This document shows positions 1,366 to 43,089 of a DNA stretch of 64,000 bases, one piece after another. How positions within the stretch are numbered: the stretch's first letter is position 1; each line of letters opens with the position of its first letter. The notes below the pieces were generated by a model. The model was not told the DNA's origin and ran no database searches. It worked only from the letters and a program-made list of their open reading frames with translations. The position numbers and the translations under genes are program-made. The DNA comes from Parcubacteria bacterium C7867-007 (GTDB taxonomy: Bacteria; Patescibacteriota; Minisyncoccia; Phycocordibacterales; Phycocordibacteraceae): positions 68,997-132,996 of the forward strand of contig LFCQ01000002.1 of the NCBI GenBank assembly GCA_001189195.1, in the 5' to 3' direction.

Positions 1366-1869
1366 TTATCTACGATCCGCTAAACCAGCTATTGCTAGTG
1401 CAATTGCATCTAACTCGTCGTCCAACCGTTTCTTTGGGGGAAGGGAAATAAGATGAGGAATCATACGTGCGATACCCACCTTATCTGAAGCACCGTATCC
1501 TGTAACCGCCAACTTCACTTGTTGAGGTGCATACTCTTGAACAGGAATCTGAGCAGCACCAGCAGCAGCAAGAATTGCACCACGTGCCTCCGCAACACCA
1601 ACGGCTGTTTTTTTGTTGGTACTAAAAAAGAGTGTTTCTAATGCAAGAATATCTGGCTGGTACTTTCGTATAACATCAGCTACTGCTTTATATACAACAG
1701 CTAAACGTAACTCCCTCAATCCTTTTGGAGGAACCACACAATCACTCCACACATGAACAGGTTTGCTGGCATCTCCTTCAAGTACAGCAATGCCTAAGCG
1801 GTCATATCCAGGATCAATAGCTAACACACGACGAAGACTATTCTTCGGTGCTTTCATATCCCCGTGCAT
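1366..1869 (-). CDS. ruvC: Holliday-junction resolvase RuvC
   Basis: RVLAIDPGYDRLGIAVL N-terminal RNase-H-like motif, catalytic acidic residues, C-terminal DDELDAIALAI; its end overlaps the start of yebC as in the usual yebC-ruvC arrangement. Confidence 0.9.
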   Translation of the reverse strand: MHGDMKAPKNSLRRVLAIDPGYDRLGIAVLEGDASKPVHVWSDCVVPPKGLRELRLAVVYKAVADVIRKYQPDILALETLFFSTNKKTAVGVAEARGAILAAAGAAQIPVQEYAPQQVKLAVTGYGASDKVGIARMIPHLISLPPKKRLDDELDAIALAIAGLADRR

Positions 1870-2395
1870 TCGTTACCACCTCCTGTACATCTTCGTGGTC
1901 GTCAAGCAATTGAAGAATCTGAGTGAACTTTGTTTCGTCCTCACCCGCAACATCCATTAGTGGTTCGTTTGGGGTATATCGACCGGTAGGGGATTTGGTG
2001 AACGCCCACAGCGCACTCCCCGGGGTACCGAGTTCGTAGCCATTCTTTGAAAGGAGATGTTTCACTTCCTGCGTGGTGCGGTTCTTGTTATCTGTAAGTG
2101 CGGAGACAATAAGGGCAGAGCCTCCTGGTCCATAGAATTCATATGAGACTGCATCCAACTCACCCGCATCCTTCGAGTTACCCTTAGCAACTGCACGCTC
2201 AATTGTGTCCTTTGGCATATTTGCTGCTTTGGCCCGATCGATAGCTGCAATAAGGCCTGGTGCAGAAAGATTCCCGTTAGCTTTCTTAGACTCAATGGTT
2301 ATAAACTTCCCAAGACGTGAGAAGGTTCGTGACTTCGCCGCATCGGCTGCACCCTTCTGGTGCTTAATTTGAGACCATTTACTGTGTCCTGACAT
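1838..2395 (-). CDS. yebC: YebC/PmpR-family probable transcriptional regulator
   Basis: MSGHSKWSQIKHQKGAADAAKS... is the hallmark N-terminus of the YebC family; lies upstream of ruvC. Confidence 0.85.
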   Translation of the reverse strand: MSGHSKWSQIKHQKGAADAAKSRTFSRLGKFITIESKKANGNLSAPGLIAAIDRAKAANMPKDTIERAVAKGNSKDAGELDAVSYEFYGPGGSALIVSALTDNKNRTTQEVKHLLSKNGYELGTPGSALWAFTKSPTGRYTPNEPLMDVAGEDETKFTQILQLLDDHEDVQEVVTNARGYESTEE

Positions 2396-2530
2396 GTAGT
2401 AACTATAGCAAAATAGGATGAACAGCCCAAAGTTCGATCCCTAGTCTCCCAGCACTCAACTTGTATAAAAGAAAGCCCTCGGCACTGGGATGAAACCAGA
2501 TACCGAGGGCACGCAGGACTAGATCCTGGT

Positions 2531-2665
2531 CTAGATTTTCGTCCCGCCGTCGCCGAGAGAGGAGGTGCCATCGTCACCGATGATGAGCGAACCTCCGTCG
2601 TGGATGCCGTCGCTGCCACCGTCTCCGATACCAGCCGAGCCTCCGTCGCCAATGCCCTGATTCAT
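2531..2665 (-). CDS. 44-aa Gly/Asp-rich peptide with five tandem 8-residue repeats (IGDGGSxx): MNQGIGDGGSAGIGDGGSDGIHDGGSLIIGDDGTSSLGDGGTKI
   Basis: Open frame with RBS AAAGGA 8 nt upstream; stem-loops downstream (2470-2525); local GC about 62%; the 117-aa ORF listed at 2299..2652 in the track is a different frame and looks spurious. Confidence 0.45.
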   Translation of the reverse strand: MNQGIGDGGSAGIGDGGSDGIHDGGSLIIGDDGTSSLGDGGTKI

Positions 2666-2725
2666 CGAGCTAGCGATCCTTTCTGCCACTCAAATGCGGC
2701 AGAATCAAAATAGCATGGAAATCCG

Positions 2726-2753
2726 GGTTCCAACATCGTCCCAGACTGCCAGC
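2726..2753 (+). repeat. Conserved 28-nt element, copy 1 (GGTTCCAACATCGTCCCAGACTGCCAGC)
   Basis: Exact match to the consensus; lies about 60 nt upstream of the peptide gene on the opposite strand. Confidence 0.8.
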
Positions 2754-2810
2754 AAATAAGAGAAGCCGTCCTCCAACGGTTCTCCGGTAGGAGATGGGGA
2801 CGGCTTGGTG

Positions 2811-3083
2811 CTAGCGTCGATGAATCTGAAGTCGGCGATTAGGCCATAGTAAGGCGCGATTACGTGTATCCATATCTGCAACCACGAATCGAAGGCTTGC
2901 TCCAGAAATGCGCCTGTTTATGCTAACGATCGTAAAACCCTGCGGGTAGTTGCCGTCTGCTGCATGCATATTCCGGACCTCTACCGGTTCGTTATGGTTT
3001 GCTCGCAGTGTAGTGATGACATCCGACCTGCCCTGCATCCGCTCGAGTTGCGACCACTCTTCGTCGGTGAGATGGTGAAGCAT
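2811..3083 (-). CDS. Hypothetical protein (90 aa)
   Basis: ORF with RBS GGGAGGA 7 nt before the ATG; hairpin (aagccgtcc...ggacggctt) immediately downstream at 2760-2800. Confidence 0.5.
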   Translation of the reverse strand: MLHHLTDEEWSQLERMQGRSDVITTLRANHNEPVEVRNMHAADGNYPQGFTIVSINRRISGASLRFVVADMDTRNRALLWPNRRLQIHRR

Positions 3084-3131
3084 GGTTCATCCTCCCGTTG
3101 ATCTGACAGCACCCTAACATAGCTGCAAAAA

Positions 3132-3159
3132 GGTTCCAACATCGTCCCAGACTGCCAGC
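3132..3159 (+). repeat. Conserved 28-nt element, copy 2
   Basis: Exact consensus. Confidence 0.8.
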
Positions 3160-3242
3160 AATAAAGCGAAAACCCTTCTCTTAATTATTGCCGTAGCAGT
3201 AATTAAGAGAAGGGTTTTGTGTGGGTTGTACGAATTCAATTT

Positions 3243-3503
3243 TTACTCTGATACTTGCAGTAGTTTTTGTGCGATTCGAACTGCAGTATCGTAACGAACG
3301 TATGCGCCGAGCAAGGTATCAACTAGTAGATTCGACGAATCACTCGTTACACCCTCTTCAATGTGCGCTGTGCATCTCTGAAGGGCTGAATCTAGGAAGT
3401 CTCGAGCAAAATGCGATTTCTCGTCTCGAGAGCCATCGCGCACATAGCGCGGCAGACTATCTATAACTTCTTCTAGAGCTTCATCGTAAAGAAGGGTAAT
3501 CAT
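3243..3503 (-). CDS. Hypothetical protein (86 aa, acidic and helical)
   Basis: ORF with RBS AGAAGGA; terminator-like hairpin downstream (3168-3215); TTGACA then a TATATAAAA box upstream. Confidence 0.5.
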   Translation of the reverse strand: MITLLYDEALEEVIDSLPRYVRDGSRDEKSHFARDFLDSALQRCTAHIEEGVTSDSSNLLVDTLLGAYVRYDTAVRIAQKLLQVSE

Positions 3504-3579
3504 CTATTAGTCCTTCTGGAAGTGAACGGGCTTACGCTTATATTTAAGCATTTTATATAAATTCTGTCAATAGTACCCT

Positions 3580-3607
3580 GGTTCCAGCATCGTCCCAGAC
3601 TGCCAGC
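3580..3607 (+). repeat. Conserved 28-nt element, copy 3 (one mismatch: CCAGC for CCAAC)
   Basis: 27/28 match to consensus; followed on the minus strand by TTGACAGAATTTATATAAAA. Confidence 0.8.
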
Positions 3608-3665
3608 TATATAAAACGAAATCGCCTAACAGGGTCAGGCGACTCCGGTAGGCGATGGTTTAATT

Positions 3666-4097
3666 CTATATTTTAGAAACAACGTGAACTCGCTTGAAGT
3701 TTTCGGCTGCTCGTTTCAGTTCAGGAGTAGGTGCTTTGCTGATCAAGATTCTGAGGCTTCGTGTGCCGATTGGACGACCGTCCAACCATCCATAGAGACT
3801 GGACCTGCTGAAGCCAAGCTGTCTGGCTGCCGTTCGGCCGTCATTGAAGTGGTGCATGTAGGCTTGGACCAGCTCCTTCAGTGCGACCTCGTAGTCAGTC
3901 GCACAGGTGAGGACTTGTGTACGTGGTTTCAGGCTGAGATCGATGCGGATGAGGAAGGCGTCTTTTTCGGACACATGCCTCGCAAACTCATCAATCCGCT
4001 GCTTGATTTCCTCAATCGAGCCCACGTCATCAGCGGTCAGTGACAGAGCCATACTCTTTGTGTCGTCAACAACTTGCAATGCCATTTGCGGCTCCAC
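3666..4097 (-). CDS. Small DNA-binding protein with a C-terminal Fis/NtrC-type helix-turn-helix (TAARQLGFSRSSLYGWL)
   Basis: The HTH signature is read directly from the translation; the overlapping plus-strand ORF at 3684..4043 has poor composition; terminator hairpin downstream at 3620-3660. Confidence 0.6.
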   Translation of the reverse strand: MEPQMALQVVDDTKSMALSLTADDVGSIEEIKQRIDEFARHVSEKDAFLIRIDLSLKPRTQVLTCATDYEVALKELVQAYMHHFNDGRTAARQLGFSRSSLYGWLDGRPIGTRSLRILISKAPTPELKRAAENFKRVHVVSKI

Positions 4098-4150
4098 AGA
4101 ATGAATCTTGTTTCTTTATGTACTATTTATATAGATTTGTCAAATACAAA

Positions 4151-4178
4151 GGTTCCAACATCGTCCCAGACTGCCAGC
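4151..4178 (+). repeat. Conserved 28-nt element, copy 4
   Basis: Exact consensus; followed on the minus strand by TTGACAAATCTATATAAAT. Confidence 0.8.
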
Positions 4179-4189
4179 ACTTTTTAGGT

Positions 4190-4495
4190 ACAAAAAAGAA
4201 AAGCCGCGACTGGGTGGGTCGTCGGCTTGTAGTTCTTCATGGCTGCTGTTTCAACCCGGCAGTGGTTCCTTGAAGGATTCGGCTTTATAACTCGCCGTAA
4301 GTATCTCTCCTGTGTCAGGCGTTACCCTAACTGCTCGGAATAGTGAGGTGATCTCTAAAGCGGAGACGTCGCCTTATGAGGCCTCAAAACCCCTAAGTTC
4401 TATGGAATTCCTTCCACAAGAGTGAGCCTGCAACCAGGCGCTCTCTACAAGGTTCGAACTAGCCGTAGCTCCCTGTATGAGAAAACCTTATCACG
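4190..4495 (-). ncRNA. Candidate roughly 300-nt non-coding RNA of unknown class
   Basis: Minus-strand TTGACA at 4513-4508 then a TATACA box, the same promoter module as at copies 3 and 4; strong intrinsic terminator on the minus strand (AAGCCGACGACCCACCCAGTCGCGGCTT + TTTCTTTTTT, plus-strand coordinates 4191-4231); no ORF longer than 18 codons in any minus frame; many internal palindromes (GUUCGAAC, GCCUGGUUGCAGGC, UGGAA-GGAA-UUCCA, GAGGCCUC, GACGUC). Confidence 0.45.
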
Positions 4496-4523
4496 GTGTG
4501 TATATTCTGTCAAGTGGCGGCCT

Positions 4524-4551
4524 GGTTCCAACATCGTCTCAGATTACCAGC
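4524..4551 (+). repeat. Conserved 28-nt element, copy 5 (GGTTCCAACATCGTCTCAGATTACCAGC, 4 mismatches)
   Basis: Sits between the leftward candidate-ncRNA promoter and the start of the next plus-strand gene. Confidence 0.7.
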
Positions 4552-4575
4552 CAGAAGTTACGCTATACTCACTCC

Positions 4576-4944
4576 ATGATGGAGCTCATTACTTCAATAC
4601 TTGTACTAATCGTATTGTTTTTAGGGATAATCGCAGGGCCCCTATTTCTCGGGGCTCTATTTGTAGATCAAGCTCTGCATAAAAAGCAGATACCAAGGGT
4701 ACACAAGTTAGGTGCCTTCCTCGTTGCTTTTGTGGTGATTACATCTGCAATTATTTTTGGAGTCTATGCGGTCCAAAAAACAGTACAACAATGTACGGAT
4801 CAGGGCAGTTACTTGGAGTTTAATGCTGACGGAGCTATACGCTATTCAAAGCGACTTAATCAGCTTCATTTACGCTGTCACACGAAAGACGGAACACTTT
4901 ATAAATTGAAACCTCTCATCGATCTTAAAGTTTATTCTGGATAA
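4576..4944 (+). CDS. Small two-TM membrane protein (122 aa)
   Basis: Hydrophobic helices LITSILVLIVLFLGIIAGPLFLGALFV and LGAFLVAFVVITSAIIFGVYAV; start chosen at the internal ATG 4576 after a TATACT box; the longer track ORF starting at 4477 runs through the repeat. Confidence 0.5.
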   Translation: MMELITSILVLIVLFLGIIAGPLFLGALFVDQALHKKQIPRVHKLGAFLVAFVVITSAIIFGVYAVQKTVQQCTDQGSYLEFNADGAIRYSKRLNQLHLRCHTKDGTLYKLKPLIDLKVYSG

Positions 4945-4950
4945 ATATCT

Positions 4951-4977
4951 AGTTCCGACATCGTCCCAGGCTGTCGG
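4951..4977 (+). repeat. Conserved element, copy 6 (AGTTCCGACATCGTCCCAGGCTGTCGG, degenerate)
   Basis: Core ACATCGTCCCAG is conserved; a TTGACA-N17-GATAGT promoter and the RBS TAGGAG follow before the gene at 5100. Confidence 0.6.
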
Positions 4978-5099
4978 TAAAGTAGGGTGCAAATACATTT
5001 TATGAAATTGACAAGACCAACTGAGAAGTAGATAGTTCACGCGGAGTACAGTACTGGTCCAGCGTTAAACGGACCGAGCAACAGCGTTAGGAGCTAGCT

Positions 5100-5711
5100 A
5101 TGTCAGACTTTCCAAGTGCTCTTGAGCTTTTCGAACAGTTCAGGCCTCGTTTCGAACGAATCGAGCTTCGACCGATTGGGTGGTTGAGTCAGGACTACAA
5201 ACAGGTGCAGCTTTACGGGCTGCTCAACTACCGAGCAGGCAAAGAGGTGAAGTGGCATGACCGCTACACTTGCTCATTTGTCGATATAAAGGAGTCTGGT
5301 TTGCAGGTCACATTCACCTACGACCCCTCTTCTGAAGCCGACATCTTGAGTCAGTTCAGCAAAGCAGTCGCTCACCAAGTCACTGCTATGCTCTCTGGCC
5401 GCATTTTCCGACTTGCGCCTGCAGAGCCTTTTGAATGCCTTGTCGACGAGCATGGTCGGGAAGTCTCTCGACGACTGAATGTGGAATTGATCGGAGATCC
5501 GCTCCCGGGTCTCAGTCTGTACAACAGTGGATACAACACCGGCGAGTCCGGTTACTGGGATAGTTTTGTTCCGCGCGGCACACCTGAGGCTGAGGCGATT
5601 CAAGCTGCACTTACCTACCACTACAAGCAGTCGCTTAAAGCACGAGACGTCGCGACTGAACAGCAGGAAGCCAAAGTCCGTCTCGAAAAAGCACTAGTTC
5701 AGATTGCGTAA
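5100..5711 (+). CDS. Hypothetical cytoplasmic protein (203 aa)
   Basis: ORF with RBS TAGGAGCTAGCT before the ATG; no family recognised. Confidence 0.55.
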   Translation: MSDFPSALELFEQFRPRFERIELRPIGWLSQDYKQVQLYGLLNYRAGKEVKWHDRYTCSFVDIKESGLQVTFTYDPSSEADILSQFSKAVAHQVTAMLSGRIFRLAPAEPFECLVDEHGREVSRRLNVELIGDPLPGLSLYNSGYNTGESGYWDSFVPRGTPEAEAIQAALTYHYKQSLKARDVATEQQEAKVRLEKALVQIA

Positions 5712-5770
5712 GATCGATGGATCAGCCCCGGTAGAAATACCGGGGTACCTCTTTTAGTAGGTGCTTAGAT

Positions 5771-5790
5771 TAGAACATCGTCCCAGACTA
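5771..5790 (+). repeat. Conserved element, copy 7 (TAGAACATCGTCCCAGACTA, partial core)
   Basis: 17-nt core conserved; its 3' end runs into TACAAT about 45 nt upstream of the gene at 5840. Confidence 0.55.
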
Positions 5791-5839
5791 CAATTTCTTT
5801 TAAACTCACGAACAAAGTGCTGAATGGTACACTTTCACT

Positions 5840-6064
5840 ATGAAAAAACGTACCCCACTTGCAACCATGCGTTATGTAGCAAAGAACCTCCTTATCGTAG
5901 TTGGACTTGTGTTGATATGGCGTGGTATTTGGTACGTGCTTGATGGTATCGATCTCATGATCTTCGATGGGTCACATTTCTGGACCGGTCTATTTGGGAT
6001 AATAGTTGGACTAGCCATTCTTTATCTTCCGGACAACGACCTAAAAGAGATTGAGAAGCTTTAA
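5840..6064 (+). CDS. Small two-TM membrane protein (74 aa)
   Basis: LLIVVGLVLIWRGIWYVL and GLFGIIVGLAILYL hydrophobic segments. Confidence 0.5.
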   Translation: MKKRTPLATMRYVAKNLLIVVGLVLIWRGIWYVLDGIDLMIFDGSHFWTGLFGIIVGLAILYLPDNDLKEIEKL

Positions 6065-6115
6065 TTAGCTCCTTAGAAGTAGCAGGGGAGCGGACAGATC
6101 ACCAATACCTGATTG

Positions 6116-7108
6116 TTATCCCTGCAAATAGTCTTTTCCTTTCTGCGTAAGGATACGGCCACGAGAAGATCGCTCGATAAACCCAAGTCGTAGGAGGTAT
6201 GGCTCATACAAGTTTTCAACCGTATCACCATCCTCGTGTAGGGCGCTTGCGAGAGCACGCACACCTGCAGGACCTCCTTTAAACGAATCACGTAGTGTTT
6301 CAAGATAGCGGCGGTCGTCCTTAGTGAGACCAAGAGTGTCGATACCAAACAGAGCACACGCCTTATCACACACTGCAGCAGTGAGGGGCAGATTATGTAC
6401 TTGTGCGTAATCACGTACACGCTTAAGTAGAGCATTTGCAACACGTGGAGTCGCACGACTACGTGCCGCGATCTTTTCTACAACAGCGTCATCAACTTCC
6501 ATTGCAAGAAGGGAAGCAGAGCGCGCAACAATTGCACGAAGGTCTGCATCAGAATAGAAATCGAGTTGATACACACCACCACCAAAGCGTGAGCGCAATG
6601 GTCCTGAAAGTTGCGCAACGCGTGTGGTTGCTCCAACGAGAGTGAAAGGAGGAAGTGATAACTCCACGGTACGAGCACTGGGACCCTTCCCAAGAATGAT
6701 ATCTAGAGACCCAGATTCAAGTGCTGGATAAAGAAGTTCTTCAATCTTGCTAGAGAGCTGATGAATTTCATCTATGAAAAGCACCGTACCTGGTTCAAGG
6801 TTTGTGAGAATGGAGGCAAGATCTCCGGCACGTTCAATTGCAACGCCAGAGGTTGTTTTAACCGGAGCTTCAAGAGATTTGCCAATAAGGTGTGCGAGTG
6901 TGGTCTTACCAACGCCAGGTGGACCGTAAAAGAGAATATGCTCTGGCATATCCCCGCGCATCTTTGCAGCCTCTAAAACGATGTGTACATTATCCTTCAC
7001 GTGCCCCTGACCCACATATTCATCCCATACGGAAGGGCGAAGAGCCGCATCCAATGCCTGATCGCGCAGCTTGATAGGGAGGTCGGTATCGTTAGGAGTA
7101 CTTGACAT
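6116..7108 (-). CDS. ruvB: Holliday-junction branch-migration helicase RuvB
   Basis: Walker A GPPGVGKTTLA, Walker B LFIDEIHQL, sensor residues and a winged-helix C-terminus; start set at MSSTPND. Confidence 0.92.
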   Translation of the reverse strand: MSSTPNDTDLPIKLRDQALDAALRPSVWDEYVGQGHVKDNVHIVLEAAKMRGDMPEHILFYGPPGVGKTTLAHLIGKSLEAPVKTTSGVAIERAGDLASILTNLEPGTVLFIDEIHQLSSKIEELLYPALESGSLDIILGKGPSARTVELSLPPFTLVGATTRVAQLSGPLRSRFGGGVYQLDFYSDADLRAIVARSASLLAMEVDDAVVEKIAARSRATPRVANALLKRVRDYAQVHNLPLTAAVCDKACALFGIDTLGLTKDDRRYLETLRDSFKGGPAGVRALASALHEDGDTVENLYEPYLLRLGFIERSSRGRILTQKGKDYLQG

Positions 7109-7401: not shown

Positions 7402-7884
7402 TTGATTAGCACCCTATCGCTCTCGGGTATACTCCTACGCGTGATAAAACGATTCTTCGATTGGACACGACTTAAGCGTCAACTTGATCTCGTCAAAGAG
7501 AAAGAATTTTCCTTCAGCGAAGGACAAATATGGTGGTGCCACACTGGAGAAAATATTGGTCATGAGTTAAATGGAAAAGGGACAGGTTTTGCACGACCAG
7601 TTTTGATTTTGAAGAAGTATGACCAATATACATTTCTTGGATTACCTCTCACTACAAAAAATAAATTTGGAACCTGGTATGTTTCCTTGTATACAAAAGC
7701 TGGCTTAAGAACAGTGGTGCTTTCACAAGAGAGAACATTTGGCTATCGCCGCATGCAAAATAGGATTCAACACGTATCCAAAAGAGACGAAAATTATATT
7801 CGCACCATGTATCTCAAGCTACACAGTAAAAATCAACCCCGCACCATTACTGATGCGGGTCGCGGGGAGTCCCGAAATCCTTGA
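7402..7884 (+). CDS. MazF/PemK-family endoribonuclease-like protein with an N-terminal extension of about 38 aa; start codon uncertain (TTG 7402 or GTG 7441)
   Basis: EGQIWWCHTGENIGHELNGKGTGFARPVLILK ... LGLPLTTKNKFGTWYVSL ... VVLSQERTF follows the MazF/PemK pattern (GDIWxV...GsEqgG.RPavVls ... cvP.TT...g.pf.v.l...q); candidate sigma-70 promoter TTAGCA-N16-TATACT at 7404-7431; no cognate antitoxin ORF seen. Confidence 0.5.
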   Translation: MISTLSLSGILLRVIKRFFDWTRLKRQLDLVKEKEFSFSEGQIWWCHTGENIGHELNGKGTGFARPVLILKKYDQYTFLGLPLTTKNKFGTWYVSLYTKAGLRTVVLSQERTFGYRRMQNRIQHVSKRDENYIRTMYLKLHSKNQPRTITDAGRGESRNP

Positions 7885-14804: not shown

Positions 14805-14844
14805 ACAGTTAATTCTAAAGCATTGTATGGAAAAATAGATGAAC

Positions 14845-14868
14845 AGTCTGTGGGACGATGTTGGAATC
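14845..14868 (-). repeat. Conserved element, copy 8 (minus strand: GATTCCAACATCGTCCCACAGACTG, with a 2-nt insertion)
   Basis: About 40 nt upstream of the SRPBCC gene, sense orientation; a TACAAT box sits between it and the ATG. Confidence 0.65.
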
Positions 14869-14965
14869 AAATCGGATCCCTGGGTTTATTTGACAATGCA
14901 TACTTATAAATGTACTCTGCAGTCCAGTCAGACCTACGTATCACAAATCAGAGGAGCAGCTGACG

Positions 14966-15142
14966 ATGTTCGCAAAGGTTTTTCACGGTGACTTAGTCTT
15001 CCAAGTGGAAGACAAGATCAATGAGTATCTCCGTTCCAACCCGGACCTCGAAGTCGTTTCGACTTCGTTCGTCATCACTCGCTACGGCAGCGGCGACACC
15101 GAATCCGCCCTCTTCGTTTTCAGGGGAGATTCGGCCGCATAG
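14966..15142 (+). CDS. Small hypothetical protein (58 aa, MFAKVFHGDLVFQVEDKINEYLRSNPDLEVVSTSFVITRYGSGDTESALFVFRGDSAA)
   Basis: RBS GAGGAG 7 nt upstream; intrinsic terminator (GAGACGTACGACCTTCGGGTACGGCGTCTC + T-run) at 15168-15210. Confidence 0.5.
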   Translation: MFAKVFHGDLVFQVEDKINEYLRSNPDLEVVSTSFVITRYGSGDTESALFVFRGDSAA

Positions 15143-15241
15143 AGCCAGTCGCAGTTGGATCAACAGAGAGACGTACGACCTTCGGGTACGGCGTCTCTTA
15201 TTTTTTTATTGCTGGGAGACTACGGATCGAACCTCATTAGT

Positions 15242-15314
15242 CCGCCTACCAGGGCTCGAACCTGGGACCGTCTCCTTAAAAGGGAGCTGCTCTACCAACT
15301 GAGCTATAGGCGGT
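15242..15314 (-). tRNA. tRNA-Lys (anticodon TTT)
   Basis: Manual fold: acceptor CCGCCTA/TAGGCGG, D-arm GCTC-AGTTGGTA-GAGC, anticodon loop CTTTTAA, T-arm CCAGG-TTCGAGC-CCTGG; CCA not encoded. Confidence 0.85.
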
Positions 15315-17574: not shown

Positions 17575-18129
17575 CTACCGTGACTTACCAGCAAGCGCTG
17601 CCTTAAGACGCGCATCACGACCAACAATATGCATGGGTACTGCGCTGAGCGCCGTACGCGCTTCACGATCGGTATACCCAAGCGCAACCAACGTATCAAA
17701 TACTTCTGCATCTTCATCGTCATGTTTCGCATCCGTTGGAGTGACCTTCTCTGAAAGCTCCACCACCAACTTCTCTGCAGCTTTATTCCCAAGCCCAACC
17801 ACACGCGTGAGGTATGAGAGGTCTCGCGAAGCTATTGCTGTCTCAAGTGATTCACGTGACGCACGGGAGAATATGGAAAGGGCAGTCTTAGGACCCACCC
17901 CTGAAACAGTGAGGAGTTGCTCAAAGAAGCGACGATCCTCTTCGGTGCTGAAGCCATAGAGATCCACACCATCCTGTTTAAATGCCATATAAGTCTTAAG
18001 ACGAACCTGGTCACCTGGTGCAAGCATATCCGCAGCTGCCAGATGGACGAAGATACCAAATCCGGCCACCTCTACGATGGCGCCCCCTGGTTCATTCCCT
18101 ATAACCACCCCGCTTAGCTCACGAATCAT
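17575..18129 (-). CDS. ruvA: Holliday-junction DNA helicase RuvA
   Basis: N-terminal OB fold MIRELSGVV..., two HhH motifs (VSGVGPKTALSI, VVGLGNKAAEKL), C-terminal domain III. Confidence 0.9.
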   Translation of the reverse strand: MIRELSGVVIGNEPGGAIVEVAGFGIFVHLAAADMLAPGDQVRLKTYMAFKQDGVDLYGFSTEEDRRFFEQLLTVSGVGPKTALSIFSRASRESLETAIASRDLSYLTRVVGLGNKAAEKLVVELSEKVTPTDAKHDDEDAEVFDTLVALGYTDREARTALSAVPMHIVGRDARLKAALAGKSR

Positions 18130-18185
18130 ATTAGGTATCGTACCATTTGCACGCGCGAGCGTTATAGCGTACTATCTCCTCACCT

Positions 18186-18455
18186 ATGGCAATTACCGCA
18201 AACGCAAAGAAGGCACACCGCGCATCCCTCAAGAAGCGCGTATTCAATGTGCGCCGCAAGCGTGTCCTTACGACCGCTACCAAAGAAGCAAAGAAGCAGA
18301 TCGCTCTAAATGCAGCAGATACTGCAACTTCACTTTCACAGGCATATAAGGCTATTGATAAGGCAGCTAAGCGCGGCATCATTAAGAAGAACACTGCATC
18401 TCGCAAGAAGTCCCGTCTCGCACTGGCACTCAAGCGAGCAACAGCAACTGCGTAA
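18186..18455 (+). CDS. rpsT: 30S ribosomal protein S20
   Basis: MAITANAKKAHRASLKKRVFNVRRK... is basic and helical, typical of bS20. Confidence 0.9.
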   Translation: MAITANAKKAHRASLKKRVFNVRRKRVLTTATKEAKKQIALNAADTATSLSQAYKAIDKAAKRGIIKKNTASRKKSRLALALKRATATA

Positions 18456-18459
18456 AAGA

Positions 18460-18492
18460 AAAGACCCGGATCAATTCCGGGTCTTTTCTTTT
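18460..18492 (+). terminator. Intrinsic terminator after rpsT
   Basis: AGACCCGGA-TCAATT-CCGGGTCT followed by TTTCTTTT. Confidence 0.7.
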
Positions 18493-18505
18493 ACTAACTA
18501 CGTTT

Positions 18506-18580
18506 TGGTGCTCCCGGCAGGAATCGAACCTACATCGTATCCTCCGCAAGGATATGTCCTATCCATTGAACGACGGGAGC
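18506..18580 (-). tRNA. tRNA-Arg (anticodon read as GCG; CCA encoded)
   Basis: Manual fold: acceptor GCTCCCG/CGGGAGC, anticodon stem TATCC/GGATA with loop TTGCGGA, T-arm GTAGG-TTCGATT-CCTGC; a GCG anticodon is unusual and the assignment should be rechecked. Confidence 0.6.
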
Positions 18581-18647
18581 AATGAGAGACAAACAAAAAT
18601 GTTCGTCCCGTGCTGACTGTATCGTCTGGAGGCCCTATTTGCAAGAA

Positions 18648-19121
18648 TTAGTGACGAAAAAGATGCTCTAAGCGATCCATGAGTGAATTCTCATGCATAC
18701 CCTCAGGTAGATGTTGTGAGACGTAGTCATACACCTCAAGCGGGTCATGATCAACGATTGGAATGTATATATGGGGGGCAAAGATATGATTTGTCTTTAT
18801 AGAAAGGGCAGGGGGAAGGGTGTTGTCTATGTATTCCAGTACCGAGAAGTCCACCATGTCTTTGTATAGATACAGGCTGTTATCAATACCAACACCATTG
18901 TCATAGATAGCGAAACGGTGTGTACGAGGATGCTTTGCGGCAGAGAGTGCGAGAGAGCCTGCGGCAGCAATCACTACAAGTGCGAGGAGAATGTTGTTGA
19001 AGAGTACACAAGCGATCGCTGCAGCGATCGCGATAATACCAAGTGCCCAGTACCAGTCGGCACCTTTCTCTTCAAACACATATTCTCTACCGAACCACTC
19101 GAAGATAGGAGTGTGGGGCAT
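18648..19121 (-). CDS. Hypothetical membrane protein (157 aa)
   Basis: Two hydrophobic helices near the N-terminus (WYWALGIIAIAAAIACVLF, ILLALVVIAAAGSLALSAA). Confidence 0.5.
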   Translation of the reverse strand: MPHTPIFEWFGREYVFEEKGADWYWALGIIAIAAAIACVLFNNILLALVVIAAAGSLALSAAKHPRTHRFAIYDNGVGIDNSLYLYKDMVDFSVLEYIDNTLPPALSIKTNHIFAPHIYIPIVDHDPLEVYDYVSQHLPEGMHENSLMDRLEHLFRH

Positions 19122-19141
19122 GTCGATATGATAGCACTTGC

Positions 19142-20356
19142 GTGCTATCTTTTATCTATATGTGGATGCGTCCTGGAATAGTTGCAGCGGGCTCGTTGCC
19201 AACAATTCCTGGGGTAACAAACTTTAGTCGTGCGAATAACGCTGCGTTTCTTACTGCACTCTCCGCAGTGAAAGCAGGAACGAATGATGTAAAGATCGCG
19301 TGTATGGGTGACAGTATCACCGCAGGTAAAGGTGCAACGGTATCAGTAAATGGCTGGACGGGTGCGCGTGCAGGCGCATATCCTCGTCTTCTTAGAACGG
19401 CTCTTGCTAGTGCATCAATTCCTTCCATTCAGGCAGACTTTTGGGGAGAGGGTACCTCACTTGGTACAACTTCAGATATTGATCTATACATGGGTAACAT
19501 TGCGCGCTCTGGATCTGGGTTTGCAATATCGGGCTCAGTGCAAAGTATTGCAGGCCTTTCCCACGCACAGAATGGTAGCCAGGTTGATAGCACCAGCACC
19601 ATTACCTATACCTGTCCTGCAGGAATGGTTGCAGATAGTGTGGCGGTCTTCACCGCACGCAATACTAGTATTGGTAAATATGTAGTGTCTCTTGATGGGG
19701 GAGCAGAAAGTCCAGAAGTGGATACTGCAGGAACCCCTGGCGCATTCACCACCACATTCTCCTATGCTTCCGCAGCCACTGGACACACGGTTCGCATTCG
19801 CAAATCAAGCACTACTGCCATTGGAGTGTTTGTGCTCGGTGTGTATTTCTATAACAGTTCAGAAAAGGGTCTCCAGCTTTGGAACTGGGGTCGAGGTGGT
19901 TGGAGAACAGACGATTGGGTAAACTCAACAAGCGCGTGGTTTCCGGGGTTCCATTACCATACACAAGGCGCAAAACTGACAATTGTTGAGTTGTGGGGTA
20001 ACGATGCCATCTCTCGACCTTCAAGCACCACAACCACCATAACGAATCTCACGACGATCATCGATAACTTACAGGCAGCAGGTTCCACGGTGTGGATCGT
20101 AAACCCCCAACCATTTGATCCTGCAGGCTCAATCGGAAGTACTGCATCATCACTGTACCGGTCGGCAGTTGCTAGTCTCGCTGACTCAAAGAATTGCACG
20201 CTCATTGATGAAACACATCACTACCCAACATGGTCCGCATGGAATGGTGCAGGGTTTGCATGGGATGCAAATCACCCTTCACAAACGGGATATCAGCACA
20301 AAGTAGATAGTTTCTATACCCCAATGCTACGAGCTCTGTGGGCAGCCGCACCATAA
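19142..20356 (+). CDS. SGNH/GDSL-family hydrolase
   Basis: Block I CMGDSITAG, block III WGNDA, block V DANHPS. Confidence 0.65.
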   Translation: MLSFIYMWMRPGIVAAGSLPTIPGVTNFSRANNAAFLTALSAVKAGTNDVKIACMGDSITAGKGATVSVNGWTGARAGAYPRLLRTALASASIPSIQADFWGEGTSLGTTSDIDLYMGNIARSGSGFAISGSVQSIAGLSHAQNGSQVDSTSTITYTCPAGMVADSVAVFTARNTSIGKYVVSLDGGAESPEVDTAGTPGAFTTTFSYASAATGHTVRIRKSSTTAIGVFVLGVYFYNSSEKGLQLWNWGRGGWRTDDWVNSTSAWFPGFHYHTQGAKLTIVELWGNDAISRPSSTTTTITNLTTIIDNLQAAGSTVWIVNPQPFDPAGSIGSTASSLYRSAVASLADSKNCTLIDETHHYPTWSAWNGAGFAWDANHPSQTGYQHKVDSFYTPMLRALWAAAP

Positions 20357-20588: not shown

Positions 20589-21341
20589 ATGAAATATCTC
20601 GGCATAGATTACGGTACTAAAAAGGTTGGCCTCGCTCTCTCGGATGATGGGGGTTCAATGGGATTCCCGCACAGCATCCTCCCCAACGATGTGCGTCTAT
20701 TTGATGCTATTCGCGAATTAATCACCAAAGAAAAGGTAGAGGCGGTGGTGATGGGGGAGTCTCGAGACTTCTCAGGAGCTGAGAACCCTGTTGCAGAAGA
20801 AGCACGTACGTTTGCTACGCGTCTTGTTGAGGCTGGCACACCCGTACACTTTGAACCAGAGATGCTCACTACTCAAGAAGCACGTCGTGACTTCGAGGGG
20901 ATACGTACGAGTGGTCATGCAGTGGTGGATTCTTCTGCAGCAGCACTCATCCTAACCAGCTACCTGTCTCGCACCCCGGTTGTTGAAGAACCAGTACCAA
21001 CGGGCAAGCCACAAATCTCCATCGATGAGTTTCTAAAGATTGAAGTGAAGATGGGATTTGTGCGAACAGCAGAGCGGGTTGAGGATACAGACAAACTTCT
21101 CCGTCTCACCGTTGACTTCAATGAACCAAATGGGCCGCGCCAGATTGTTTCCGGTATCGCAATGTATGTTGAAACTCCAGAAGCACTTATTGGTAGACAA
21201 CTAGCATTTGTAACAAACTTAAAACCCCGTACCATCAAAGGGCTTGAATCAAACGGCATGCTCTTTGCTGTTGGTGAAGGAGATACTTTCGCATTTGTCA
21301 CACCTGATCGTGAGGTTCCTCCAGGTACTGCTGCACACTAA
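20589..21341 (+). CDS. Fusion protein: RuvX/YqgF-type resolvase-like ribonuclease domain (N-terminal) joined to an EMAP/Trbp111-type tRNA-binding OB domain (C-terminal)
   Basis: N-terminal MKYLGIDYGTKKVGLALSD ... VDSSAAALILTSYL is the RuvX pattern; C-terminal ISIDEFLKIEVKMGFVRTAE...LLRLTVDFNEP...RQIVSGIAMYVETPEALIGRQLAFVTNLKPRTIKGLESNGMLFAV is the PF01588 tRNA-binding signature found at MetRS C-termini and in CsaA. Confidence 0.7.
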   Translation: MKYLGIDYGTKKVGLALSDDGGSMGFPHSILPNDVRLFDAIRELITKEKVEAVVMGESRDFSGAENPVAEEARTFATRLVEAGTPVHFEPEMLTTQEARRDFEGIRTSGHAVVDSSAAALILTSYLSRTPVVEEPVPTGKPQISIDEFLKIEVKMGFVRTAERVEDTDKLLRLTVDFNEPNGPRQIVSGIAMYVETPEALIGRQLAFVTNLKPRTIKGLESNGMLFAVGEGDTFAFVTPDREVPPGTAAH

Positions 21342-39627: not shown

Positions 39628-42600
39628 ATGGCGGAAATGGAGAACGATGAAAAGAAGGTGTCTGAAGTAGCTGCTCGTGAAGAGGAAATCCTTGCGTACT
39701 GGAATGAGCAAAAGACTTTCAAGGCATCACTTGAGAAGCCATCACCAAGTGGTGAATATGTTTTCTATGATGGTCCTCCATTTGCAACAGGTCTCCCACA
39801 CCACGGCCACATTCTTGCCGGTACCATAAAGGATGCAATACCGCGTTATAAGACGATGCGTGGATTCCATGTACGCCGACGTTGGGGTTGGGACTCACAT
39901 GGTCTTCCTCTGGAGAACATCATTGAGAAAGAACTCGGTATAAAGACGAAGCGAGACATCGAAGAGATGGGTGTGTCTGTATTTAATGAAGCGGCACGTA
40001 GCGCGGTGCTTCGTTATGCCGATGAGTGGAAGCGCATCGTTCCCCGTATTGGACGCTGGGTGGACATGGAGGATGACTACAAAACCATGGACACTACATA
40101 CACAGAGTCGGTATGGTGGGCATTCAAGAAACTCTTTGATAAGGATCTTATAGAAGAAGGATTCAAGGTGATGCAGCTTTGTCCACGTTGTGGCACAACA
40201 CTTTCAAACTTTGAAGTGAGTCAGGGATACAAAGACATTAAAGATATAACTGCATATGCGAAGTTCGAGCTCGAAGATGAACCTGAGACCTACCTTCTTG
40301 CGTGGACCACAACGCCCTGGACTCTTCCAGGAAACATCGCGCTCGCGCTCGGTACTCAGATTGAATACGTAAAGGTTGAGAAGGGTGGCGCGCAGTACAT
40401 TCTTGCGAAGCCACTCGTTGAAAAAGTATTTGGTGAAGATCACGGAGAGGTAACCCCTGTTACTAAATCTGAGATCCTTGGACGGGTATATAAACCTGTC
40501 TTCCCAGGCGTTATGGATGCGCTTGCAGAAGGAAAGGAACGAGACAAGCTAGGTGCTGCATTCCGTGTGTATGAAGCAGACTTTGTAACGGCAGAAGATG
40601 GAACGGGTATCGTACATATTGCACCGGCATTTGGTGAAGATGATCTCAATCTCTCACGTGCACACGGGTTGCCAATTGTGCATCACGTAGATCGTGATGG
40701 TCGAATGATGAGTGCAGTGCCTGTGGTTGCAGGAAAGCTTGCAAAGCCTAAGGGGCAGTGGTGGGAGACCGATGCCCTCATTGTTGAATACCTTGGAGAG
40801 AAACTCTTTAAGACTGAAGAAAAAGTACACAGCTACCCACACTGTTGGCGCTGTGACACTCCACTCCTTAACTACGCATCAAGTTCGTGGTTCGTTCGTG
40901 TGCCAACTTTCAAGGACAAACTTGTTGCAGAGAACGATAAAGTTAAATGGGTGCCAGAAGCAATTGGAAAGAACCGTTTCGGTGACTGGCTAAACAATGC
41001 ACGAGACTGGGCAATTTCACGTAGTCGCTATTGGGGTGCACCTATTCCGGTATGGAAAAACGAGAAGACGGGAGCGCTCCGTGTGTTTGGTTCAGTCGAT
41101 GACATGAAGGGTCACGCAAAGAAAAGCGGTAACCGGTACTTCGTTATGCGTCATGCGGAAGGTGAACATAATATAAAAGGTATTGCTGCAAAGGGTGATG
41201 AGACCTTCCGTGCATCTCTAACAGAGACTGGTCGTGGACAAGCAGAAAAGAATGCATCAGCACTCATGCATGCAAACGTAACGCGCATCATTGCTTCACC
41301 GCTCACGCGTGGATGTGAAACCGCAGTGATTGTAAAAGAAACACTCGGGCTACAGGGTATTGAGATCATCCAAGACGAACGACTCCGTGAGTTTGATTTT
41401 GGAGAACTAGACGGCAAACCGATAGGGGAGTTTGTGAGATGGCGTGAGGTTAATACGTATGCGGACCGTATTCCCGGAGGCGAAAGCTATCAAGATGTTA
41501 AGAACCGTCTTGGTGCATTTCTCTACGATCTTGAACGTACGTATCAGAATGAAACAATTCTCATCGTTACGCACGGCGTAGGTATTGAAACAATCAATGC
41601 CGTTGCACAAGGAATAGATGCAGACGCGTCCAAGAAACTATCCGCAGAGATGGTGCCCTTGTATGCAACACCTATTGAACTGGATTTCACTCCGCTGCCA
41701 CACAACACAAACTATGAACTCGATCTCCATCGTCCATACATAGATGAGTATGCGCTCATAGATACTGATGGTGCTGCACTGCATCGTGTTGCTGATGTCT
41801 TCGACTGCTGGTTTGAGTCTGGTTCAATGTCTTATGCACAGGACCACTATCCATTTGAGAAAGATAATTTTAATCCTGAAAGTGGATTCCTTAAGAAATC
41901 AAAAGGATATCCTGCAGACTTTATTGCAGAGGGATTGGACCAGACACGTGGCTGGTTCTACTCAATGATTGTTCTTGGTACCGCGCTTTTTGGACATTCG
42001 CCGTACAAGCACGTGATCGTTAACGGACTGATTCTTGCGGAAGATGGAAGGAAGATGTCTAAGAGCCTGAAGAACTACCCAGAACCTATGGATGTGGTGG
42101 CTAAATATGGTGCAGATGCACTTCGTCTCTATCTCCTCTCCTCACCACTGATGCGCTCAGAAGACCTCCGATTCTCAGAGAAGGGAGTGGCGGATGTGGG
42201 TAACAAAATAATTGGACGCCTACACAATACTCTCGTGTTCTATCAGACGTATGCAATGAACGATGTGCCGGAAAGTGTTTCAAGTAATCATGTTCTTGAT
42301 CGATGGATCACTGCACGCCTTAAGGAGGTACGTGATGAAGTAACAAACGGACTTGAGTCGTATGAACTTGATCGTGCAGCACGCCCACTCGCGCTACTGG
42401 TTGATGATTTATCAACATGGTATTTGCGCCGCTCACGTGACCGCGTAAAAGATTCGGTTGAGGCTGCAGCGACCCTTCGTTCAGTACTGCGTACTTCTGC
42501 ACTACTCTTCGCACCGTTCGCACCGTTTTATGCAGAATATCTATGGAGTAAGATTCGTTTTGCTAAAGACCCTGAAAGCGTGCACCTTGCAGACTGGCCA

Positions 42601-43089
42601 GAAATGAAGGGCAAAGACGAGAAGGTGCTTCTAGAGGATATGGTACTTGTTCGTGAACTTGCCTCAGAAGCACTTAAACTTCGTCAGCAGGCTGGCATTG
42701 TTGTGCGTCAGCCACTGGCATCACTGAGTGCACCAACCATACCGCGCACCGCAGAGCTTATTGAGATTCTGAAGGAAGAGGTAAACGTTAAGGGTGTTCT
42801 AAAGAGGGAGGGAGAGATGTCTCTTGATACCGAGCTTACTGATGAACTAAAACGTGAAGGTGATGTACGTGCCTTTATGCGTGCACTTGCTGATGCACGC
42901 AAGGACATGAATCTATCACCAAAAGATGTGGTGCGAGTTGTTGCTGACCATGCCGCAAAAGATATGCTCACCGGTCTCAGCATTGCAGGACTTGCTGAGC
43001 TTTCATTCAGTGATTCAGTTGAAGGACCCTATACTGCCGAACTTTCTTCCACGGAGATAGGATTCACCGTTACACTCGATGCGGCATAA
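39628..43089 (+). CDS. ileS: Isoleucyl-tRNA synthetase carrying an inserted histidine-phosphatase (phosphoglycerate-mutase-like) domain
   Basis: HIGH (HHGHILAG) and KMSKS present, editing domain, WCISR-like DWAISRSRYWGAPIPVW; between that and LHRPYIDE...DVFDCWFESG lies a roughly 190-aa insert with RHAEGEHN, GRGQAE, SPLTRGCETA, REFDFGELDG and the catalytic THG. Confidence 0.9.
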   Translation: MAEMENDEKKVSEVAAREEEILAYWNEQKTFKASLEKPSPSGEYVFYDGPPFATGLPHHGHILAGTIKDAIPRYKTMRGFHVRRRWGWDSHGLPLENIIEKELGIKTKRDIEEMGVSVFNEAARSAVLRYADEWKRIVPRIGRWVDMEDDYKTMDTTYTESVWWAFKKLFDKDLIEEGFKVMQLCPRCGTTLSNFEVSQGYKDIKDITAYAKFELEDEPETYLLAWTTTPWTLPGNIALALGTQIEYVKVEKGGAQYILAKPLVEKVFGEDHGEVTPVTKSEILGRVYKPVFPGVMDALAEGKERDKLGAAFRVYEADFVTAEDGTGIVHIAPAFGEDDLNLSRAHGLPIVHHVDRDGRMMSAVPVVAGKLAKPKGQWWETDALIVEYLGEKLFKTEEKVHSYPHCWRCDTPLLNYASSSWFVRVPTFKDKLVAENDKVKWVPEAIGKNRFGDWLNNARDWAISRSRYWGAPIPVWKNEKTGALRVFGSVDDMKGHAKKSGNRYFVMRHAEGEHNIKGIAAKGDETFRASLTETGRGQAEKNASALMHANVTRIIASPLTRGCETAVIVKETLGLQGIEIIQDERLREFDFGELDGKPIGEFVRWREVNTYADRIPGGESYQDVKNRLGAFLYDLERTYQNETILIVTHGVGIETINAVAQGIDADASKKLSAEMVPLYATPIELDFTPLPHNTNYELDLHRPYIDEYALIDTDGAALHRVADVFDCWFESGSMSYAQDHYPFEKDNFNPESGFLKKSKGYPADFIAEGLDQTRGWFYSMIVLGTALFGHSPYKHVIVNGLILAEDGRKMSKSLKNYPEPMDVVAKYGADALRLYLLSSPLMRSEDLRFSEKGVADVGNKIIGRLHNTLVFYQTYAMNDVPESVSSNHVLDRWITARLKEVRDEVTNGLESYELDRAARPLALLVDDLSTWYLRRSRDRVKDSVEAAATLRSVLRTSALLFAPFAPFYAEYLWSKIRFAKDPESVHLADWPEMKGKDEKVLLEDMVLVRELASEALKLRQQAGIVVRQPLASLSAPTIPRTAELIEILKEEVNVKGVLKREGEMSLDTELTDELKREGDVRAFMRALADARKDMNLSPKDVVRVVADHAAKDMLTGLSIAGLAELSFSDSVEGPYTAELSSTEIGFTVTLDAA

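Follow-up and report, generated by a model that had tools for sequence, protein, structure and literature searches.

Element A, a ~35-nt junction site of Patescibacteria, as the probable closing site of gene cassettes in arrays headed by tRNA-Gln-like sequences

Why should one short sequence recur in a single direction between small genes that themselves point either way? The question is raised by a stretch of 64,000 nucleotides from Parcubacteria bacterium C7867-007 (contig LFCQ01000002.1, positions 68,997 to 132,996; hereafter the window), in which an island of small genes separates yebC from ruvB. The window overlaps a contig of a JGI metagenome. An earlier, sequence-only reading of the window had noted a 28-nt string in seven co-oriented copies within the island and an eighth on the opposite strand some distance away, and had offered two explanations: the string is either the operator of a dedicated regulon, served by a resident helix-turn-helix (HTH) protein or an extracytoplasmic function (ECF) sigma factor, or the recombination core of a cassette array. 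The evidence set out below favours the second. The string forms the core of element A, a junction site of ~35 nt (consensus AnAAAGGTTCCAACATCGTCCCAGACTGCCAGCAA), and A is probably a recombination site of ~35 bp that marks the end of cassettes which are mobile, expressed from their own signals and mostly made up of one gene. Both arrays of the window are headed by a second element, B (AGGTTCGATCCCTAGTCTSCCAGCAATA), which is absent from the earlier reading. The setting is of wider relevance: Patescibacteria (the Candidate Phyla Radiation, CPR) have tiny, streamlined genomes, and their acquisition and shuffling of accessory genes are poorly understood.

Eight copies of A are present in the window. 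Its 17-nt core AACATCGTCCCAGACTG, with up to 3 mismatches allowed, matches seven times, each time on the plus strand and within 2732-5790 (at 2732, 3138, 3586, 4157, 4530, 4957 and 5774); 0.17 matches are expected in shuffled sequence, and seven were reached in 0 of 100 shuffles. The eighth copy (minus strand, ~14838-14873) carries a 1-nt insertion (CCCACAGACTG) and lies upstream of an AHSA1/SRPBCC-type gene. With a profile derived from 217 copies in other genomes, exactly these eight are detected in the window and no further ones. The logo of 237 copies reads A-n-A-A-A-R-GTTCCAACATCGTCCCAGAC(T/A)GCCAGCAA and is sharply bounded, extending from position −6 to +28, with essentially no information on either side. 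There is no likeness to tRNA in the best-conserved 17 nt, GTTCCAACATCGTCCCA. When the two strands of the consensus are folded, neither dyad symmetry nor a hairpin nor terminal inverted repeats appear; as single-stranded DNA (ssDNA) the two strands reach −1.2 and −1.8 kcal/mol (z 0.4 and 0.1). The 3′ half is not uniform between genomes. In UBA6241 (L018, L028; L numbers denote individual loci) and in L066 a variant of this half is enriched (GTCCCACACAGCCAGCA or GTCCCACACCCCCAGC), while the 5′ 17 nt are invariant, which suggests either sub-families or concerted evolution inside a genome.

Two simple identities can be dismissed. A CRISPR-like array is ruled out, as the units are 180-1200 nt long and bear genes. 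Known RNA or tRNA identity of the elements is likewise ruled out: they lie in no tRNA of the window, and Rfam searches of the whole window (gathering threshold) and of 2300-6200 (E up to 1) returned only tRNAs and chance miRNA matches.

Element B occurs twice in the window, once at the head of each of two arrays. Its pattern GTTCGATCCNTAGTCTCCCAGCA matches at 2432-2454 on the plus strand, where the island begins, and at 15210-15232 on the minus strand, 7 nt past tRNA-Lys. Both arrays run B, cassette, A, and the island adds further cassette-A units. The features are as follows (ORF, open reading frame; TM, transmembrane; E values refer to the profile of the respective element).

1838..2395, minus strand: yebC, the conserved left flank (Pfam TACO1/YebC); its start codon is 36 nt from B1
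2429..2456, plus strand: B1, head of the island, a free-standing copy of the tRNA-Gln(UUG) 3′ end, AAAGTTCGATCCCTAGTCTCCCAGCA; exact pattern match, E 1e-8
2457..2720, minus strand: cassette 1, with a leftward 52-aa Gly/Asp-repeat ORF (2531-2689) without Pfam match; hairpin adjoining B1
2721..2756, plus strand: A1, core 2726-2753, E 1e-11
2757..3125, minus strand: cassette 2, with a 90-aa ORF (2811-3083); its predicted promoter uses TTGGAA inside A2 as −35 box, with TAGGGT 17 nt downstream
3126..3163, plus strand: A2, E 6e-14
3164..3574, minus strand: cassette 3, with an 86-aa ORF (3243-3503) and a 20-bp terminator hairpin (3172-3215)
3575..3611, plus strand: A3, one core mismatch
3612..4144, minus strand: cassette 4, with a 143-aa ORF (3666-4097) that has a weak HTH_28 match; terminator 3617-3647
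4145..4181, plus strand: A4, E 4e-13
4190..4485, minus strand: cassette 5, without a long ORF; a candidate structured RNA of ~290 nt
4519..4554, plus strand: A5, degenerate, with 3 mismatches in the 17-nt core, E 2e-6
4555..4945, plus strand: cassette 6, with a rightward 122-aa two-TM ORF (4576-4944)
4946..4981, plus strand: A6, degenerate, E 8e-6
4982..5762, plus strand: cassette 7, with a 203-aa ORF (5100-5711), a TTGACA promoter at 5008 and a terminator at 5725-5746
5763..5797, plus strand: A7, partial, with decayed left and right ends, E 2e-3
5798..6115, plus strand: the last unit, with a 74-aa two-TM ORF (5840-6064) and no recognisable A before the ruvB stop codon
6116..7129, minus strand: ruvB, the conserved right flank
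14838..14873, minus strand: A8, degenerate, with a 1-nt insertion, E 3e-4
14874..15206, plus strand: cassette of the second array, with a 58-aa ORF (14966-15142), a hairpin by B2 and TTGACA by A8
15207..15235, minus strand: B2, a free-standing copy of the tRNA-Gln 3′ end, 7 nt past tRNA-Lys, E 3e-8
15240..15313, minus strand: tRNA-Lys(UUU), anchor of the second, one-cassette array; the tRNA-Lys and B pair is also found in L067

Much of what had been read from the sequence alone holds at this level. The element copies are genuine, the eighth on the minus strand included, and stand far above the shuffle expectation; the seven island copies do share the plus strand. They had been placed between small transcription units with hairpins of their own, and terminator-like hairpins are indeed enriched among the small units (nine found, 3.1 expected). 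The strings TTGACA(A/G)AAT..TATA, 7-10 nt from copies 3-5, are present and are read here as the −35 boxes of leftward promoters; a consensus promoter scan did not call them. The position of ruvA, given as 10 kb off, agrees with a gene at 17575-18129.

The cassette genes of the window have no homologues by tblastn against 150 related loci, and their proteins are orphans. Cassette 5 combines a TTGACA/TAAGGT promoter with a strong intrinsic terminator, and its predicted fold (−100.8 kcal/mol, z −3.2) has no Rfam match and no homologue in the 150 loci. For the 203-aa protein of cassette 7, a set of 5.8 billion proteins yields a single homologue, 50% identical. The 5′ untranslated region of this gene (5040-5099) is conserved with that of the homologue (L156, 1-86; GGAGTACAGTACTGGTCCAGCGTTAAACGGA vs GGAGTGCAGTAGTGGTCCAGCGTTCAACGGA), and from this alignment the leader may be cis-regulatory.

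B corresponds to the 3′ end of tRNA-Gln(UUG), comprising T-arm, acceptor strand and discriminator, or to a free-standing copy of that segment. At 13 loci it is the genuine 3′ end of an intact, ARAGORN-predicted tRNA-Gln(UUG) downstream of dnaX, while 38 of 52 head sites are free-standing copies of the tRNA end behind other genes. The free-standing form is a sharply bounded 27-nt block, AGGTTCGATCCCTAGTCTGCCAGCAATA (n=38 copies). Both copies in the window are of this type and do not lie inside an intact tRNA-Gln. Nearly every array has one single B, on its 5′ side and on the same strand as A. The two elements are partly alike: they have a GGTTC head in common, and their 3′ parts are related (ATCG-TCCC-AGACTGCCAGCA in A vs TTCGATCCCTAGTCTGCCAGCA in B), the likeness being limited to the 3′ 20 nt of A, with ~18 of 22 aligned positions identical.

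Free-standing B is found in recurrent places. It may follow another tRNA by a few nt, namely tRNA-Lys (window, L067) or tRNA-Pro (L006); elsewhere it stands at the stop codon of co-oriented housekeeping genes, including those for AlaRS-like, YchF-like and UDG proteins. A family of HI0933-like flavoproteins flanks 7 loci, and B abuts its stop codon in 4 of them. Fifteen free-standing copies start 0-1 nt from the stop codon of a co-oriented gene (L007, L011, L012, L019, L023, L025, L033, L034, L040, L046, L052, L059-L061 and L063), so that the TAG of B can itself act as stop codon. Distal array ends, in turn, abut the stop codons of convergent genes: ruvB in L076 and L079, and an Xer-like gene in L009. 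Both sites used in the window, upstream of yebC and behind tRNA-Lys, are reused in other genomes. The only inverted repeat of B is the 5-bp T-stem of the tRNA T-arm, which is not kept in the free-standing copies. The idea that B is a decayed half-tRNA was rejected: in the 41-nt B-only insert of L076, just the ~23 nt at the 3′ end resemble tRNA-Gln.

How far does this arrangement extend? A species-representative genome collection, scanned once with a 19-base pattern, contains 72 matching loci in 36 assemblies, all but two of them metagenome-assembled genomes (MAGs) of Patescibacteria (Paceibacteria/Parcubacteria). The two outsiders are an Actinobacteria match, which fits chance, and a 1.5-kb contig binned as a Gammaproteobacteria MAG. 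The same layout, B followed by cassette-A repeats, is found in ~34 species of Paceibacteria/Parcubacteria. Together, the 72 loci and the window hold 237 distinct copies of A, spaced 180-1200 nt apart (median ~500). Outside the window, A is confined to a single strand in every multi-copy locus of 8 kb (52 of 52); the window itself has seven plus-strand copies and one minus-strand copy 9 kb away. A single genome may have six or more separate arrays, with at least 12-21 A copies in the fetched pieces. About 1% of a genome lies in arrays, and there are several docking sites per genome. The exact pattern has no match in viral contigs, and blastn gave none in plasmid and phage collections; on the absence of matches in these three kinds of collection, a phage or plasmid origin was ruled out. 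No description of such CPR arrays, nor of either sequence, was found in the PMC and bioRxiv full text that was searched, and this clade-wide cassette system docked at tRNA-Gln-like sites is apparently undescribed.

The case for mobility comes from cassettes that occur in more than one species. Six are 68-86% identical at the DNA level between species. In aligned pairs, similarity sets in just past the left A, takes in the right A and goes no further, and the flanks are unrelated. The shared cassettes occupy a different rank, or sit in an array with the other type of head (L015 is headed by tRNA-Gln, L042 by a free-standing B). Rare variants of the right-A tail (CCAGCCAATA; GCCARCTA) are common to the partners of a pair, and the 3′ halves of the left A differ. 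The tail of an A therefore travels with the cassette to its left, and the unit consists of unique DNA plus the A on its right. From these comparisons, the exchange point would lie at or just past CCAGC(A/T), the 3′ edge of A. The docking end gives a matching picture: the dnaX-tRNA-Gln flank is ~78% identical between species and this identity ends exactly at the last base of B, past which only A repeats align, together with one shared cassette whose identity (85%) exceeds that of the flank. The cargo is of a typically accessory kind and includes GNAT acetyltransferases, S-adenosylmethionine (SAM) methyltransferases, NUDIX proteins, HAD hydrolases, a histidine phosphatase, HicB and PIG-L; ~75% of cassette proteins are orphans, and a Pfam scan of 60 of them found no transposase and no recombinase domain. 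A free-standing His_Phos_1 gene is among the shared cassettes (L028/L066).

The ruvB-yebC locus occurs in three states of occupancy. A metagenome scan with the YebC of the window retrieved 80 orthologous loci. About 55 relatives are empty: the genes run pilB-ruvB-yebC-ruvC, and no more than 15-31 nt separate the stop codon of ruvB from the start of yebC. Two, L076 (the closest, with 87% YebC identity) and L079, hold B alone at the position of B1, in a spacer of 69-70 nt, with the 3′ end of B (...CCAGCA or ...GTCAGC) running straight into the stop codon of ruvB. The filled state is represented by L095 (B, one NUDIX-like cassette and one A), by L092 (one cassette between diverged forms of B and A) and by the window, with B and eight units in 3.7 kb. 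That the island interrupts the yebC-ruvC/ruvB neighbourhood is borne out by the ~55 relatives with a short gap, and the presence/absence comparison proposed earlier, with its empty, B-only and filled states, favours insertion. The cassette-array interpretation is thereby strongly supported, by copies confined to one strand in 52 of 52 loci, shared cassettes bounded by A, the three states of one locus and the break of synteny at B.

This picture is complicated by the fact that A is also in contact with promoters. Among 156 cassettes, the longest ORF is on the element strand in 71 and on the opposite strand in 85 (54 vs 60 in a stricter count). The four gene configurations around internal A copies are equally frequent: both genes leftward in 15, convergent (+−) in 15, both rightward in 13 and divergent (−+) in 12. 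The convergent A copies, 15 of 55 (27%), have no adjoining promoter. The reverse complement of A contains TTGGAA, and 24 of 60 leftward cassettes have a −10 box at a distance of 16-19 nt from it; 20 of these boxes are TG-extended. In rightward cassettes, an extended −10 box is often present 4-14 nt past the preceding A. In 26 copies, a conserved promoter module of ~33 nt, TCTAGACAGAACCTAGCATATGTTGCAGAAAGG, is fused to the left side of A, before unrelated leftward genes (L004, L006, L007, L012, L013, L027, L030, L052 and others; a diverged version lies at window 3095-3131). Read on the other strand, this module consists of the TTGGAA −35 box in A, 18 nt and TGnTAGGTT. It also carries a conserved transcript start, GTTCTGTCTAGA, which might be a regulatory site. 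The promoters at A are of sigma-70-like, extended −10 type and do not show the ECF motif. An ECF promoter (GGAAC...CGTC) was considered and rejected, as the reverse complement of A contains both motifs in the wrong order and spacing. The promoters at A are read here as cassette promoters that adapt to a constant neighbour.

A search for the enzyme gave little. E. coli XerC was compared by phmmer with every ORF of 90 aa or more from the window and the 150 related loci (1.23 Mb), a search that would miss very divergent integrases; it had one match. The match (L009:4198-5190) is the convergent flank at the distal end of an array, which its stop codon abuts. Pfam scans of 20 recurrent flank families, the 60 cassette proteins and ~40 window ORFs found no recombinase; no search was aimed at serine, HUH or DEDD enzymes. 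The window contains no xer gene. It does encode FtsK with a gamma domain, so an Xer system is probably present in the genome.

Could A simply be the operator or promoter of a regulon, bound by a protein, be it the HTH protein or the ECF sigma factor, that co-regulates the small genes? Its constant position between transcription units, the −10 boxes paired with its TTGGAA, the 26 fused modules and the rightward extended −10 boxes would all suit such a role. The random orientation of genes, the equal frequency of configurations and the absence of dyad symmetry are evidence against it: A has no fixed position or orientation relative to promoters, over a quarter of the copies stand between convergent gene ends, and A copies confined to one strand despite random gene orientation are not what a regulon predicts. 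Neither proposed regulator helps, as the 143-aa HTH protein is without homologue in the 150 loci and the promoters are not of ECF type; and the regulon leaves B, the synteny break and the empty and B-only states unexplained. It is very unlikely, and this half of the earlier interpretation is not supported. An even poorer account, to the point of being scarcely credible, is a selfish repeat of the repetitive extragenic palindromic (REP) or miniature inverted-repeat (MITE) type, inserted between pre-existing genes. A is short, intergenic, multi-copy and confined to one bacterial clade, as such repeats are; yet the intervening genes are missing en bloc from relatives, whose ancestral ruvB-yebC spacer is 15-31 nt, the copies are clustered in B-headed arrays instead of being dispersed (at least 12-21 per genome in few loci), cassette homology is bounded by A, and there is neither a hairpin nor a terminal inverted repeat.

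More demanding are two explanations that accept cassette movement and differ in how it is brought about. One dispenses with a dedicated recombinase and has RecA-dependent homologous exchange, for example after natural transformation, use the 35-bp A copies as anchors. It would fit the lack of a recombinase near any array (apart from the single Xer-like flank gene in L009), the stop of cassette homology at A on either side, and the presence in the window of genes for RecA, PilM and a PilB-type ATPase (type IV pilus/competence-like). However, 35 bp is about the lower limit for RecA-mediated exchange, and the model offers no reason for the near-invariance of 35 positions across ~34 species, for the strict single orientation, for a distinct head site identical to the tRNA-Gln 3′ end or for B-only sites joined precisely to their flank. 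A tails that move with the left cassette only point to a defined exchange point, not to crossovers along the repeat, and exchange by RecA alone is distinctly improbable. The other relies on ssDNA chemistry: an HUH-type nickase (relaxase-like or IS200/IS605-like) would recognise the top strand 5′ of ...CCAGCA, start at one site and stop at the next, and the resulting single-stranded circles would re-insert at B or A on the lagging-strand template. In its favour, A lacks a dyad, and all of its conserved sequence lies to one side of the proposed exchange point. Long flanking genes mostly have the element strand as their sense strand (65.8 k vs 23.7 k aa; 52 loci vs 19), and the GC skew of that strand is positive in 58 of 72 loci, as expected of a lagging-strand template, but this strand bias is confounded by the position of B behind co-oriented genes. 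On one 364-kb contig the orientation flips once, between 152 and 216 kb. Set against this, the island of the window is itself in the minority orientation, A has no hairpin of the kind that most HUH enzymes need, and no HUH gene emerged from the Pfam scans of recurrent flank families and cassettes, which were not an aimed HUH search. As a whole, the ssDNA route is unlikely, if less so than the other three.

Site-specific recombination is argued for by strict co-orientation, a distinct head, precise cassette boundaries, precise joints between B and its flank, and the conservation of 35 positions across species. In the mechanism proposed here, an array would be built as B followed by cassette-A, cassette-A and so on, with all sites on the same strand and B acting as docking site at the start. 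Gain, loss and exchange of cassettes would come about through conservative site-specific recombination of A and B sites, at or just past ...CCAGC(A/T), so that each cassette would keep its own A at its 3′ end, like the attC of an integron cassette; the intermediates would be circular. As no recombinase is encoded nearby, the enzyme must act in trans, and would be encoded elsewhere in the genome. Its class is a matter of guesswork. It could well be a tyrosine recombinase, perhaps strand-selective like IntI; docking at the 3′ ends of tRNA genes is best known from enzymes of this class. An HUH-type single-strand nickase/ligase is a somewhat unlikely guess. In its one-sided conserved sequence, without arms or hairpin, A bears more likeness to systems that act on a specific strand, for instance HUH nickases or IntI with its folded attC.

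Several points weigh against cassette recombination at A and B. No recombinase for the arrays has been identified, and neither excised circles nor gain or loss within a population have been observed. The lack of dyad and hairpin makes A atypical of tyrosine and serine recombinase core sites and of attC. The exchange point is based on just three or four homologous cassette pairs, and the spread of free-standing B to a dozen gene ends is without explanation. About a third of leftward cassettes use the TTGGAA in A as −35 box; A is not purely a recombination site. Finally, the homologue of the 203-aa protein is encoded beside a tRNA with no canonical A after it, on a 1.1-kb contig that is too short to be informative.

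If the proposal is right, a phylum of streamlined genomes would have a dedicated cassette system, with cassettes common to several species, that would supply accessory genes. It would be a second, independent answer to the problem that integrons solve, with other sites. Like attC, the 35-nt site could serve as a handle for amplifying the cassettes of uncultured CPR bacteria and compiling a catalogue of them, and phyletic profiling could lead to the recombinase; an enzyme that recognises an asymmetric 35-nt site would be a potential genome-engineering tool.

Some further features of the window are recorded here. In a 1153-aa isoleucyl-tRNA-synthetase-like protein (39628-43089, plus strand), the class I core is interrupted by a His_Phos_1 domain (residues 505-671). 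A 250-aa fusion (20589-21341, plus strand) joins a RuvX (YqgF) Holliday-junction-resolvase-like domain to a C-terminal tRNA_bind domain. A PemK/MazF-like toxin gene (7402-7884, plus strand), with no obvious antitoxin, is alone in the 805-nt gap between ruvB and the gene for the PilB-type ATPase; the gap is ~280 nt in one compared relative (L080) and holds neither A nor B in the window, and it may be a second variable spot. The minimum of cumulative GC skew lies at ~18000-19500, where the predominant gene strand changes from minus to plus, which suggests a replication origin inside the window; dnaN, ~3 kb left of the window start (L001), counts against this.

It remains to compare the arrays with known systems. 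The closest functional likeness is to integrons and CALINs (clusters of attC sites lacking integron-integrases), with their IntI, attI and attC. In both, co-oriented sites each close a small, mostly single-gene cassette behind a distinct head site, cassettes are common to several arrays and species, and the cargo comprises GNATs, methyltransferases, NUDIX proteins, parts of toxin-antitoxin systems and many orphans. Exchange at the 3′ edge of the site, by which the site moves with the left-hand cassette, would be a further shared trait. The differences are equally marked. Here no integrase accompanies the head site, which is a tRNA 3′ end, and a genome has many arrays, each with its own head. 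attC sites are imperfect palindromes of 57-141 nt (R''-L''/L'-R') that fold as hairpins. They conserve structure, whereas A conserves a 35-nt sequence without hairpin or R and L boxes. Cassettes here carry their own promoters and terminators and point in either direction, whereas integron cassettes are mostly promoterless, co-oriented and driven by Pc. Of five features that define an integron, the arrays thus lack three (an adjacent intI, attC-type hairpins and promoterless, co-oriented cassettes), while an array of co-oriented sites, one closing each mobile cassette on its 3′ side, is there. Whether the arrays work like an integron and are yet mechanistically unrelated to it, through many docks per genome that mimic the tRNA-Gln 3′ end, a one-sided, hairpin-less site and an enzyme class new to cassette arrays (an RNA-guided recombinase, say, or an HUH nickase/ligase that is strand-specific and works on the lagging-strand template), is doubtful though conceivable, and a new chemistry of the cassette system as such is likewise more doubtful than not.

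Elements that target tRNA genes, such as those with P4-like integrases and tycheposons, share docking at a tRNA 3′ end that leaves the tRNA intact, tandem units behind it and att sites related to the T-arm/acceptor part. The resemblance to tRNA-docked islands extends, reportedly, to the tycheposons of Prochlorococcus, said to have been described by Hackl et al. in 2023. Insertion at the 3′ end of an intact tRNA-Gln was found in the 13 loci, though not in the two arrays of the window. The units here are much smaller (0.2-1.2 kb) and without integrase; most head sites are free-standing copies behind other genes; and the distal repeats are A, which shares ~18 of 22 positions with the tRNA end, rather than a copy of it. 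Direct repeats of a tRNA segment at both ends (attL/attR) and an integrase gene beside the att site were not found. Xer/dif modules (pdif of Acinetobacter plasmids; integrative mobile elements exploiting Xer, IMEX) are likewise small, with short conserved sites and a recombinase encoded elsewhere. Their dif-type sites have 28 bp, with two inverted 11-bp arms and a spacer of 6-8 bp, and pdif sites alternate in orientation, whereas neither A nor B has such arms, and their copies all point the same way. With IS200/IS605 and relaxase-type HUH systems the arrays have in common a one-sided recognition sequence, the need for same-strand copies and a possible lagging-strand-template bias, and differ in that A has no subterminal hairpins and the mobile units are cargo instead of transposase genes. 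On balance, the system is filed as a variant of the site-specific gene-cassette array.

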